From IMG/VR virus record IMGVR_UViG_2582580752_000008: 50,059 bases of DNA; one strand, written 5' to 3'. The stretch is from a virus (lineage: Duplodnaviria; Heunggongvirae; Uroviricota; Caudoviricetes). Made by a program: the position numbers. The first letter of the stretch is position 1, and every line of letters begins with the position of its first letter. Positions 6,001 to 9,000 of this stretch are shown here, one piece after another.

Positions 6001-9000
6001 GTTTTTTAAAGTCATCTTCATCGTAGCCAGCATCGTCAATCGCAACAGCACCACGGGATATGGCAATGGATAATTTTTTCGCTTCAGCCCAGTAGAAACC
6101 GCCTTTAATACCGAGACGTTTTCTTACTTTGTCATTTTTTGCTTCGTAATACAGTGGGTAAACTTGTTTATCGGTGCTCATTGTTTTTTTAACCTCAACT
6201 TAGATTAAAATTACTGCGAGTGATGAATAAATGTCCCAGGTTCTTCACTCAGGCCTGCACAGTGTGCAGGCTTTCTTTTTTTTCAGATTTCACCCTTTGA
6301 TTTCATTGCAATCAGAGTTGCCAGAAATTCGGCTTTTTTTTCTGCGGGCAGATTCTTTCCGATATGCACCAGGCACATTTTTTTGACGCCTTCGTTAAGT
6401 GTTTTAACGTTGCCTGATGGACCGTCGATATCAACCACAGTGAAAGGGGTTTCTTTATTTTCTGTTTTAATCACGTAGCCAATACGCTTTCCTTCCAGGC
6501 TGACTTCGTGAACAATGTCATCAGTAGTAACAACAGTGGCTTCATAACTGGTAATCATGTTTTTCTCCTTAATTAAGGTTGAGCGAATCCCTGCCATTGC
6601 TGGCATAAATTCAGTTTCGGATAGTCAGTTAATTAAAGTTCGTGTGCCATCTGGTCTTTTTCGGCACAGATTTCACTACAATATTTTTTCATTTCCGTCG
6701 TTGGTATAACTCCACGCATGAAATGAAGTGGTCTTGTAATGATTTTGCTTTCTTCAATTTCTTTATTGCAAAGGTGATAAGCACATTTTATTTTCTTAGT
6801 CATTACCATGACTCCGCCTTTACAGGTAAACCATCACGACCGAGGAAGACTCTAATCATGCAGTCAGAAATGCATGTTTTTGTAGTCAGGCTACGAATAT
6901 AAAGTTTTCGCTTTTTAATATTGTTTGCCGAGGCGATATATGTCCGACCTTCATGAAGAACATAATCGCCAGGGGTCACACACTGACGTGGTATTTCATC
7001 AGTTCCGAAGTGATGAGCAATCATAATTATCTCCATTTTTACAAATGAATTTTGTCGATGCGGTGCCTGGTGCCTCCAGGTGACGTTAACCAGTTAACAA
7101 TTAACGCCGGATACAGAGAATCCACCCATAACACTGTTTTTGGTTTTAACTGTTCCGCGTGCGCTTAGCCGCATTCACCGCATCACAAAATTCACTTTAA
7201 AAAGGGCGGCAGAGCAGCCACGGAGTAAAACTGATACCGCCAAACGTCACCAGAAAATTGATAACAGAGGGCGTTGCAGCGGGGTTGTCACTTAAGCGTA
7301 TGGTCAACCTGACAACCCGGTGTCCTCAACGGGGAAGGAATAACCCCGCCATACTTACCGCCGCGCCATTTCGCGGAGTGCCACAACCGGAAGCGCACGT
7401 TCGAAGAAATCTAACGACAAGCCTTCTGAGGGAAAGAGCTTCGCCGTACGCTTTCGCGTTATGCCCTGACTTTTCAGGGAAATATCCTTTCAGTAAACTG
7501 TCAGTACCGGATTCTTATCCGTGTCCGGCGCACGACCACACGTGACAGCGTGTTGGTCTCCATTTTTAACCCAGAACCTCAATGGAGGATAAAATGCCAA
7601 ACAAAAAAGAAATCCGCTTATTGAAAAACAGATTGAATGCCTGGTAAATCAACTCAGGCAATCAGGGTTATTAAAAACTCATTCAGAGTTGAGGCTCACA
7701 GAATCAGCATTCGACGATAAATTAAATAATGTCCTTTATAATGGCATTATTGATTTTAATCGTTCTGTTGGTCGCCGCGGCCCTGCTGGTGTTTCCTTAT
7801 AATTACCAGTCAATCCAGAGTGGACCGTGTTCAGCGTAAATATAACTGTACACATCCAGATTATATTTGTGGTCTGTTAAGAACAGGCCGCAAATACATG
7901 CCGAAGCTTCCAGTGCAGCGGCTCTGTTACTGAATAACCATGTAGCAACATTCCAGCGTTTTTCTGCATCCCAGTCTTTCTCAAGGCCTGATACCATGAA
8001 GAAACCGTTAGTGTTGCCATCAAATAATTCTGTTTCCAAATTTTTAAGCAATGCCTGATGGACTCTTGCCAGGTATTCCGCCGGAATTTCGCCACGAATT
8101 CTGATGAGATTGTCATAAACAAACATGTTCCCCGCATATGGCGATTTTTCTTTCTTGTTTTTTAAACCAGCATCATGAGCAAACTGATCAATTTCTTCTT
8201 CCGTTGGTTTCGTATTGATGTTTTGCGCTGTCGTTTCTGCAATTTTATTTGCCACACTCTCTGAGTCGTGTTTATTTATAGACGCACAGAAATACAATCC
8301 GGTAAACGCATCGCGCACATTACGAGCTATATTATCAGTGTCTTTTTTCGTTACCGATTCCAATTCAAGTTCGTTCAGACGATGACGAAGTGTGTGTGCT
8401 GCAATCTCCTGGATTGAAGGAGGTAAATCTTTAAATTCCATCGTCAACCTCATTAGTCGGAGTTTCTTGCTAACCAGCGATGCGCGCCAGCTTCGGTTTT
8501 AAACGATTTGCTTTTGGTATACGTCATGGCGGTGAATGTGCCGTCCTGATTGGGAAACACGCCACATACCAGAGATTCGTTGTTGCCAAGATCGATAGTA
8601 TCCATGTTGACCTCATTTCCCCTTAACGCCGGGTGGCGGAACGTTTTATCTACTGCGCTTTGTATCAATCAACAACTGCCGTCATGTTCGTATGCCTCAG
8701 GCTGGCTACTTAGCCCTGTTCAGTGGCTGGATAACTCGAGGTATTGTCCAGCCGTTCTCTGGTGGGGCGTTGTTTGGATATGCTTATTAAACACAATGCG
8801 TTTTCTTATGTCAACACGAAATGTGTTTTGTGGTGGGTGTCATATGATGATGGTACAAAAAAGCCCGCTGATAGCGGGCTGATTGGCATATTACTGTGAT
8901 AGCAAGATCATTACTCCGGTGGGGGATTATCTTTAAGCCTGCCTCTCAAATATTTTTCTACATACTCATCGATTTCTTTTAGCCGGACTTCAAATAGCTC

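Follow-up and report, generated by a model that had tools for sequence, protein, structure and literature searches.

The window analyzed here is the whole 50,059-nucleotide (nt) stretch of IMG/VR virus record IMGVR_UViG_2582580752_000008, a Rac-family lambdoid prophage integrated at ttcA. On its minus strand, between the prophage repressor gene and the small RNA DicF, an open reading frame (ORF) of 212 amino acids (aa; 7803-8441) follows a DUF1391 gene. This ORF is a real gene, as indicated by its intact copies and by conservation of its C-terminal domain (C-domain) that reaches Salmonella, and it is a dispensable, horizontally exchanged accessory gene located in an exchange hotspot. The C-domain of the protein (family phrog_2151) and a convergent 69-aa gene (phrog_4274) form a conserved tail-to-tail functional unit. 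The helical N-terminal part of the protein (the head) is best explained as a resident part of the locus, with the C-domain coming and going together with the convergent gene.

The convergent gene lies on the plus strand at 7594-7802, and its stop codon abuts that of the 212-aa gene. The NCBI annotation pipeline PGAP annotates it in an Escherichia coli O145 prophage (WP_001133037.1); E. coli O145 and O157 prophages are 99.9% identical to a 1.2-kb query around this region. Full-length matches to phrog_4274 were obtained with the intact O145 version (E 1.2e-51) and with the Salmonella orthologue (E 1.5e-20). Among 5426 complete E. coli genomes, the C-domain is found in 598 (743 places) and the 69-aa gene in 595 (736 places). 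In the set of 80 related IMG/VR loci, all 16 of the C-domain loci that retain downstream DNA carry the 69-aa gene, and no locus with the 69-aa gene lacks the C-domain. Three more C-domain loci are without the gene; two of them are ended by the contig end, and one is ended by a rearrangement inside the C-domain. The same pairing occurs in both C-domain subfamilies of Salmonella; next to the C-domain gene is a convergent orthologue of approximately 64-69 aa that ends in RRG(T)PAGVxL and has approximately 50% identity to the E. coli protein. The Salmonella pair is set in a prophage with an integrase, a C-type repressor, and a Cox-type switch. Salmonella proteins that share the head of these Salmonella C-domain proteins (see below) and have no C-domain are not accompanied by a 69-aa orthologue; a different convergent ORF is present instead.

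In the window itself, a run of seven A near 7603-7608 is one A short (A7 to A6), and this shifts the frame of the 69-aa ORF. Of the 595 complete E. coli genomes, only O26 RM8426 has the same change; it also occurs in three other IMG/VR loci, one of which (L012) is apparently the window itself. Because only one complete genome shares it, the change may be a homopolymer sequencing error; it may also be real decay. An alternative-frame ORF on the plus strand (7729-7839), encoding a very hydrophobic 36-aa peptide (MSFIMALLILIVLLVAAALLVF...) and overlapping both gene ends, is probably an artefact; Salmonella conserves the 69-aa frame instead. No membrane segments were predicted for the 69-aa protein in the conserved frame, and it had no match in Pfam, NCBIfam, or PADLOC.

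The 212-aa gene has two candidate start codons. The DUF1391 stop codon overlaps an ATG at 8453 (TAATG), which would give the 216-aa protein proposed in the initial annotation. A second ATG is located 12 nt further on, at 8441, with GAGG-N6 before it, and this is the start used by PGAP (WP_000394548.1, 212 aa), by the PHROG profile, and by nearly all homologues. Both ATGs are kept in 19 of 19 related loci. A length of 212 aa is more likely, and 216 aa is possible. The protein, which also appears as "Ybl81", matches phrog_2151 (function not assigned) with E 1.4e-146 over profile positions 1-212 of 212, corresponding to residues 5-216 of the 216-aa reading. This was its sole family match; no match was found in Pfam, NCBIfam, or PADLOC, in agreement with the earlier statement that it has no recognizable domain. 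PADLOC-DB v2, searched at E values up to 1, gave no match for either protein of the pair, for the Salmonella homologue, or for four proteins of alternative cassettes at the same site (see below). No literature was found on DUF1391 function, "Ybl81", or WP_000394548, including in the DefensePredictor supplements.

Close homologues of the 212-aa protein are 200-221 aa in length and come from Escherichia throughout, plus one Salmonella cluster. The ORF is intact in 15 of 19 IMG/VR copies. Its GC content is 41% (51.5% for the window). The protein had been described as acidic, which holds only in a moderate sense (isoelectric point [pI] 5.2, net charge approximately -10). A test for DNA-mimic anti-restriction proteins of the Ocr/ArdA type was negative, with a net charge of approximately -10 over 212 aa and no similarity in Pfam, in annotated PHROG families, or in the Protein Data Bank (PDB).

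Two domains can be distinguished in the 212-aa protein. The head (residues 1 to approximately 75, beginning MEFKDLPxSIQEMAA; 8217-8441, minus strand) gave partial matches to PHROG families 1363, 9419, 6937, and 33007, and helices were predicted at residues 8-24, 32-55, and 60-73 (AlphaFold2, confidence score pLDDT approximately 70). The C-domain (residues approximately 101-212; 7806-8141, minus strand) is an alpha/beta domain specific to this cassette, with the invariant motifs GxIPxxY and FDGxxNGxF. Mean pairwise identity within the family is 63% for the N-terminal region (1-58), 76% for the middle (59-100), and 88% for the C-domain (101-212), and the N-terminal region has at least three allelic types. 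A profile search of 1.84e9 representative proteins found one full-length cluster and approximately 45 clusters that match only residues 1 to approximately 55-90 and have unrelated tails; these head-only relatives are prophage proteins of 42-200 aa. The same search found two Salmonella clusters (P0141 and P0153) that match only residues approximately 75-195. Outside the family, relatives of the C-domain are limited to approximately 16 Salmonella proteins with approximately 30% identity, in which it is joined to another head (MFNVKRNG...); some of them also have an XRE helix-turn-helix (HTH) inserted. The E. coli and Salmonella heads are not supported as homologues (hhalign probability 4.5%, with only a 10-residue motif in common). 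YdaG of K-12 was considered as a truncated form of the N-terminal domain and dismissed, as the sequences are unrelated.

Structure prediction suggests what kind of domain the cassette carries. The first AlphaFold2 model was poor (pLDDT 60), and a model from a mixed alignment reached 72.6 overall, with the C-domain showing a bb-a-bb-a-b topology and, for the most part, pLDDT values of 81-91. A Foldseek search of BFVD with the C-domain gave weak matches (E 6e-4 to 2e-2) labeled "cysteine protease", "YsxB-like", and SUI1-like. The search of PDB found nothing at E <=1e-3, with Prp and TM1457 at E of approximately 0.02, so that the C-domain has no significant structural neighbour. Sequence searches of PDB, in which the C-domain profile or the 69-aa protein served as the query, found no match. 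The C-domain resembles Prp/DUF464 proteins (TM1457, YsxB) weakly and may resemble ACT/ferredoxin-like folds; the catalytic dyad of Prp is absent. Residues invariant across the E. coli and Salmonella C-domains are mostly hydrophobic, plus D141, N145, and E178, and include no Cys or His. A Prp/DUF464 cysteine protease is ruled out by this lack of conserved Cys/His across subfamilies, and the fold match is weak (TM-score 0.36-0.45). The C-domain looks like a binding module, not an enzyme. Neither profile searches nor structure prediction yielded a confident match to a housekeeping or structural phage family.

Relatives of the head also occur outside this operon arrangement. Escherichia phage ArgO145 gp22 (L003 4001-4444) and proteins of approximately 70 other Shiga toxin (Stx) phages are 147-aa proteins whose head is the same (43% identity over 86 aa). 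In Stx2a phages, the head protein is encoded far down the early-left (PL) operon and there is no DUF1391 gene; therefore, the head can occur independently of DUF1391. Nine separate stretches of a 5212-aa protein (P0154) match head profile positions 17-71 (E 3e-8), which may reflect only coiled-coil structure or composition.

Comparison of this slot across related prophages found exchangeable cassettes between conserved flanks, bearing out the earlier suggestion of a hotspot. In pairwise comparisons of prophages with DUF1391, homology breaks within the N-terminal domain codons (8234-8400, depending on the partner) and exactly at the convergent ATG (7594-7596). The conserved right flank (7256-7596), which reaches up to and includes that ATG, serves both strands; it holds the DicF precursor leader on the minus strand and an invariant GGAGG-N5-ATG on the plus strand. 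One alignment (A5) has 87% mean identity up to the convergent ATG and unrelated sequence after it. Other ORFs begin from the same convergent ATG, with lengths of 64 aa (phrog_4987), 61 aa (phrog_10133), 100-102 aa (phrog_8894), and approximately 99 aa, and each is accompanied by its own forward tail in the loci examined (L005, L007, L035, and L046). These alternative cassette proteins had no match in Pfam, NCBIfam, or PADLOC. Judging from the sequence at these junctions, incoming genes are placed under resident expression signals.

The cassette is dispensable. After DUF1391, approximately 50 of the 80 loci have a gene with any form of the N-terminal domain, 19 have this domain together with the C-domain described here, and more than 20 run straight to DicF. 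Two loci (L071 and L073, locus coordinates approximately 3276-4790) are natural empty sites; they have the identical 139-aa repressor, PL, DUF1391 (97% identity), approximately 200 nt, and then DicF and kil (94.5%), with neither the N-terminal domain gene nor a convergent gene. Qin of K-12 is also empty, and in K-12 Rac this interval holds sieB, convergent and tail-to-tail with ydaF. As the initial annotation stated, the K-12 slots hold only tiny ORFs (ydaG, 44 aa, and ydaF, 51 aa, in Rac; ydfA, ydfB, and ydfC in Qin). The 212-aa cassette is found in approximately 11% of the complete E. coli genomes, mainly enterohemorrhagic E. coli (EHEC) of serogroups O157, O145, O111, O103, and O26, a frequency to be read with the enrichment of the complete-genome collection for EHEC. 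This distribution, the empty sites with the same repressor, PL, and DUF1391, and the low GC content all agree with the initial view of the ORF as an accessory gene.

The Salmonella convergent flank is recognizably homologous to its E. coli counterpart (alignment A6). In three Salmonella loci (L004, L091, and L093), the DicF-leader flank of E. coli has its homologue in the DNA 5' of the convergent ORFs (GCCGGATGCTTACCTGTGTCCGGCGCAC...GGAGGGTAAAATG), and no DicF was found in these loci at the Rfam gathering score. Locus L093 has a C4 antisense RNA (72.6 bits). In alignment A5, the flank at approximately 7541-7556 contains a 5-bp stem (ACACG/CGTGT) in all loci, with a 6-nt loop that is either TGACAG or its reverse complement, CTGTCA. 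This loop swap may reflect a small inversion or a structure that functions on either strand.

The early-left operon opens with the DUF1391 and 212-aa genes, which are in the position of lambda N, not of rexAB. The prophage repressor (8911-9330, minus strand) is a 139-aa XRE/DicA-like HTH protein (HTH_3, E 4.7e-13) that scores 57 bits against the DicA model NF007257, under the model cut-off. Its gene is followed on the same strand by an intrinsic terminator (8880-8862) with an 8-bp stem, including six GC pairs, and then TTTTTTG. Next is a PL/dicBp-type promoter, read from the sequence as TTGACA (8814-8809), a 17-nt spacer, and TTTAAT (8791-8786), also on the minus strand. The automatic promoter scan missed this promoter for the sole reason that it demands A at position 2 of the -10 hexamer. 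Operator-like palindromes cover both promoter elements, with an exact AACAC-N5-GTGTT over the -35 (8813-8827) and a version with one mismatch over the -10 (8790-8804). The intergenic region between the repressor and the cro-like gene has OR-type palindromes (9342-9402), among them an exact AACAC-N5-GTGTT (9388-9402) and ATCAC-N5-GTGAT (9342-9356). In 50 kb, the exact motif (10 specified bases) has only the two copies at 8813-8827 and 9388-9402, compared with approximately 0.05 expected by chance. The promoter palindrome sites also form a direct repeat family (D1).

A promoter bracketed by the palindrome of the repressor/cro region is an operator-flanked PL, and the promoter looks like a repressor-controlled PL of the dicBp type. 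In Qin, dicBp is repressed by DicA, and DicF is processed from its polycistronic transcript (10.1101/2023.04.14.536235). With PL flanked by operator-like sites, the DUF1391 and 212-aa genes are predicted to be early-lytic genes that are silent in a stable lysogen. The repressor, terminator, near-consensus promoter, DUF1391 ORF, and TAATG overlap listed in the initial annotation are all located where it placed them. Its likening of the slot to that of rexAB did not hold up, with the genes downstream of an operator-flanked PL and a terminator after the repressor.

We tentatively favor a possible explanation in which the pair is split between the two life cycles, the convergent gene serving the lysogen and the PL-driven fusion protein neutralizing the 69-aa protein during the prophage's own lytic growth. 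The anatomy of the locus, its operon membership, its operator-like sites, the domains, the strict linkage, and the hotspot are established here; the timing of expression, the physical interaction, and any exclusion phenotype are inferred. In a lysogen, with PL repressed, only the convergent 69-aa gene would be expressible. Its product would act for the lysogen, for example by abortive infection or by superinfection exclusion, in keeping with the role proposed for sieB in the K-12 Rac interval. When PL fires upon induction or infection, transcription would run antisense across the 69-aa gene. The 212-aa protein would then be made, and its C-domain would bind and neutralize the 69-aa protein. 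The phage would thereby be immune to its own exclusion factor, following the logic of SieB/Esc or BstA/aba.

Several results weigh against this explanation. There is no similarity to SieB (tblastn with K-12 SieB against the 80 related loci), and neither protein of the pair matches any PADLOC, Pfam, or NCBIfam family. For the 69-aa gene, no sigma-70 promoter passed the scan, and the best manual candidate reached 8/12. The 69-aa gene is frameshifted in the window while the 212-aa gene is intact, and the reverse decay is found in locus L010; either partner decays alone, and therefore there is no sign of a strong addiction-type constraint. Tight physical adjacency alone could be the cause of co-inheritance. 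None of the 50,697 deposited phage genomes contains the C-domain or the 69-aa gene, and the N-terminal domain alone is present, in Stx phages; because of this absence, the pair may reside mainly in defective prophages. With no match to a defense family for either protein, defense stays a hypothesis. A defense role for the cassette is plausible, and it is a reasonable candidate for a phage-exclusion/self-immunity pair.

More broadly, the interval between ydfA (DUF1391) and DicF, together with its Salmonella counterpart, could be a plug-and-play site for pairs of an exclusion factor and its self-antidote, a generalization we regard as speculative. The resident head and the Shine-Dalgarno (SD) sequence and ATG on the opposite strand would give the two partners opposite expression in the life cycle. 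Lysogens would express the convergent gene, and the head-fused partner would be made only after derepression, with antisense shut-off of the convergent gene. On that view, the phrog_2151 C-domain and phrog_4274 would make up one such system among at least five, all uncharacterized.

SieB of phage P22 aborts superinfecting phages, and the Esc protein made by the phage, an internal product of sieB, protects the phage itself. The sieB gene of K-12 Rac lies in the same interval between DUF1391 and DicF/kilS. It converges tail-to-tail on the DUF1391 gene, an arrangement matched by the 69-aa and 212-aa genes. The logic proposed for our pair would be analogous, combining a lysogen factor with an early antidote; Esc is internal to sieB, whereas the antidote here would be a separate convergent gene. 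In lambda, rexAB lies between cI and PL and is co-transcribed with cI in lysogens. The genes studied here are similar to rexAB as accessory genes in or next to the immunity region; they differ in being downstream of an operator-flanked PL, and there is no homology. The BstA/aba system is a prophage defense with cognate self-immunity, in which BstA is a large protein made in lysogens and aba is a DNA element (PMC8585504). It is similar to the window pair in having an accessory locus beside the repressor and in the antidote idea, without homology (PADLOC negative), and the 212-aa gene is predicted to be repressed in lysogens.

Defense hotspots of P2 and P4 have conserved flanks and many alternative small cargoes that are exchanged among related prophages, mostly of unknown function (PMC9122126). 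The site in the window differs in location, being in the early-left operon upstream of DicF. It also differs in that one junction is inside a coding sequence, so that the resident N-terminal domain continues in frame into the cargo, and the other junction is at a resident SD/ATG. None of the cargoes sampled at this site matches a known defense family.

The 212-aa protein could also be an early-lytic host-takeover or anti-defense effector, expressed from PL with Kil, DicF, and RecET, with the 69-aa gene as hitch-hiking cargo; we consider this alternative rather doubtful. It fits the position in a repressor-controlled early operon beside the host-directed DicF and kil, and it also fits the low GC content, the patchy distribution, and the moderate acidity. 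A constant head with a variable tail would suit rapid target switching. However, hitch-hiking does not readily explain a pairing that has outlasted divergence to approximately 30% identity in the C-domain and approximately 50% in the 69-aa protein and that moves between phage backbones and heads. In addition, there is no match to known anti-restriction or anti-defense families, and the acidity is far under that of DNA mimics.

The Salmonella HTH fusions and a possible ACT-like fold raise a regulatory role, in which the C-domain would be an oligomerization or ligand-sensing module and the protein would modulate early transcription, the processing of DicF, or antitermination at the DicF terminator. 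In Salmonella, the C-domain ends XRE HTH proteins encoded right after the C/Cox switch, and genes left of DicF require read-through of the DicF terminator. We nevertheless think a regulatory function unlikely. The E. coli protein is acidic and has no DNA- or RNA-binding motif, and near-identical prophages without the gene argue against a core regulatory role. A test for lambda N-type antiterminators was negative for both operon genes, with a pI of 5.6 for DUF1391 and 5.2 for the 212-aa protein and no Arg-rich motif in either. The same N-terminal domain protein occurs with different repressor types (L007 compared with L008), and hence it is not immunity-specific; an immunity-specific antirepressor is ruled out, as this protein is found with a 139-aa repressor and with a 238-aa S24 repressor.

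Strict pairing of two small genes would also suit a toxin-antitoxin-like addiction module, with one partner growth-inhibitory and the other an antidote, stabilizing the prophage. The fusion of the Salmonella C-domain to an HTH, as in many antitoxins, and the presence of other toxin-antitoxin systems nearby in related prophages (e.g., ParE/PaaA2 and Hok) are consistent with this. Such a module is improbable here, given that the convergent layout, in which PL drives one partner, does not resemble known type II systems, that either partner can be lost alone, and that no Pfam toxin or antitoxin match was found.

The initial annotation pointed to the DUF1391 and 216-aa ORFs as an exclusion or abortive-infection cassette. 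On this model, lysogens would express the cassette from a promoter of its own, as with rexAB or sieB. This is the least probable of the explanations and very unlikely to hold: operator-like sites lie on the promoter, which should be off in lysogens; DUF1391 is approximately five times more widespread than the 212-aa gene (approximately 2800 genomes match) and precedes many other genes or none, so it is not a dedicated, coupled partner; there is no PADLOC match; and the position and orientation of K-12 Rac sieB are those of the convergent 69-aa gene, which had been overlooked, not those of the 216-aa ORF. In favor of the model, the genes are near the immunity region in a variable interval that holds sieB in K-12 Rac, and two observations on Qin also support it. 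The counterpart dicBF operon has low activity in stationary phase (10.1101/2023.04.14.536235), and DicB is reported to be able to exclude phages (PMC6832061).

The Qin dicBF operon (dicBp-ydfA-ydfB-ydfC-dicF-dicB-ydfD-ydfE) is among the closest known arrangements, likewise having a CI-like repressor, a PL-like promoter, a DUF1391 gene in first position, and DicF downstream, and its DicF leader is common to the window at the DNA level. It differs from the window in that neither the N-terminal domain gene nor the convergent ORF is present and ydfC leads straight into the DicF leader. In the window, dicB is only a remnant, and the operon runs on into Rac-type kil and recET. The cassette shares its operon with two factors that affect host cell division, DicF and Kil; DicF also affects EHEC virulence regulation. 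If the life-cycle-split pairing is true, there would be at least five compact uncharacterized gene pairs that are candidates for phage exclusion with built-in self-immunity. A genomic rule for finding more pairs would follow, namely a conserved head, a tail-to-tail pair, and a conserved convergent ATG. If it is wrong, the locus still shows that the "defense slot" is a position in a repressed early operon and that the functional partner is not DUF1391.

The remaining features of the operon are as follows. The PL leader (8606-8785) is approximately 175 nt long and holds a 10-bp hairpin (8725-8734/8744-8753; inverted repeat I8), with arms GGCTGGATAA and TTGTCCAGCC located between PL and the DUF1391 start. 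The DUF1391 ORF (YdfA/YdaF-like, 50 aa; 8605-8453) is the first gene of the operon; it belongs to phrog_751, is annotated by PGAP as "DUF1391 family protein", and matches Pfam PF07151 over profile positions 1-48 of 48 (E 5.1e-29; 100.1 bits, cut-off 27.3). Between PL and DicF, no minus-strand terminator was predicted in the terminator scan. DicF (7204-7255, minus strand) is in the same transcription unit and has its terminator (stem 7221-7206); it matches Rfam RF00039 with 75 bits (gathering score 48; E 7.9e-16). The dicB remnant (approximately 7051-7134, minus strand) is taken from the PGAP annotation of the 99.9%-identical O145 prophage. Next is kil (6803-7036, minus strand; phrog_294 Kil, E 2.8e-37), and ydaE, racC, recE, and recT are further left.

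In the O145 copy, PGAP annotates the order int, xis, ralR, recT, recE, racC-like, ydaE, kil, dicB remnant, a plus-strand "hypothetical protein", the 212-aa "hypothetical protein", the DUF1391 protein, and the HTH repressor, with all but the noted gene on the minus strand; the plus strand continues with cro-like, ydaT, ydaU, and ydaV. An STnc100-like match at 7017-7202 (minus strand), below threshold (38 bits; gathering score 47), spans the dicB remnant and the region upstream of kil. The recE gene (3056-6181, minus strand) encodes 1041 aa, compared with 866 aa in K-12 (2601 nt), and the surplus is in the acidic, low-complexity N-terminal part.

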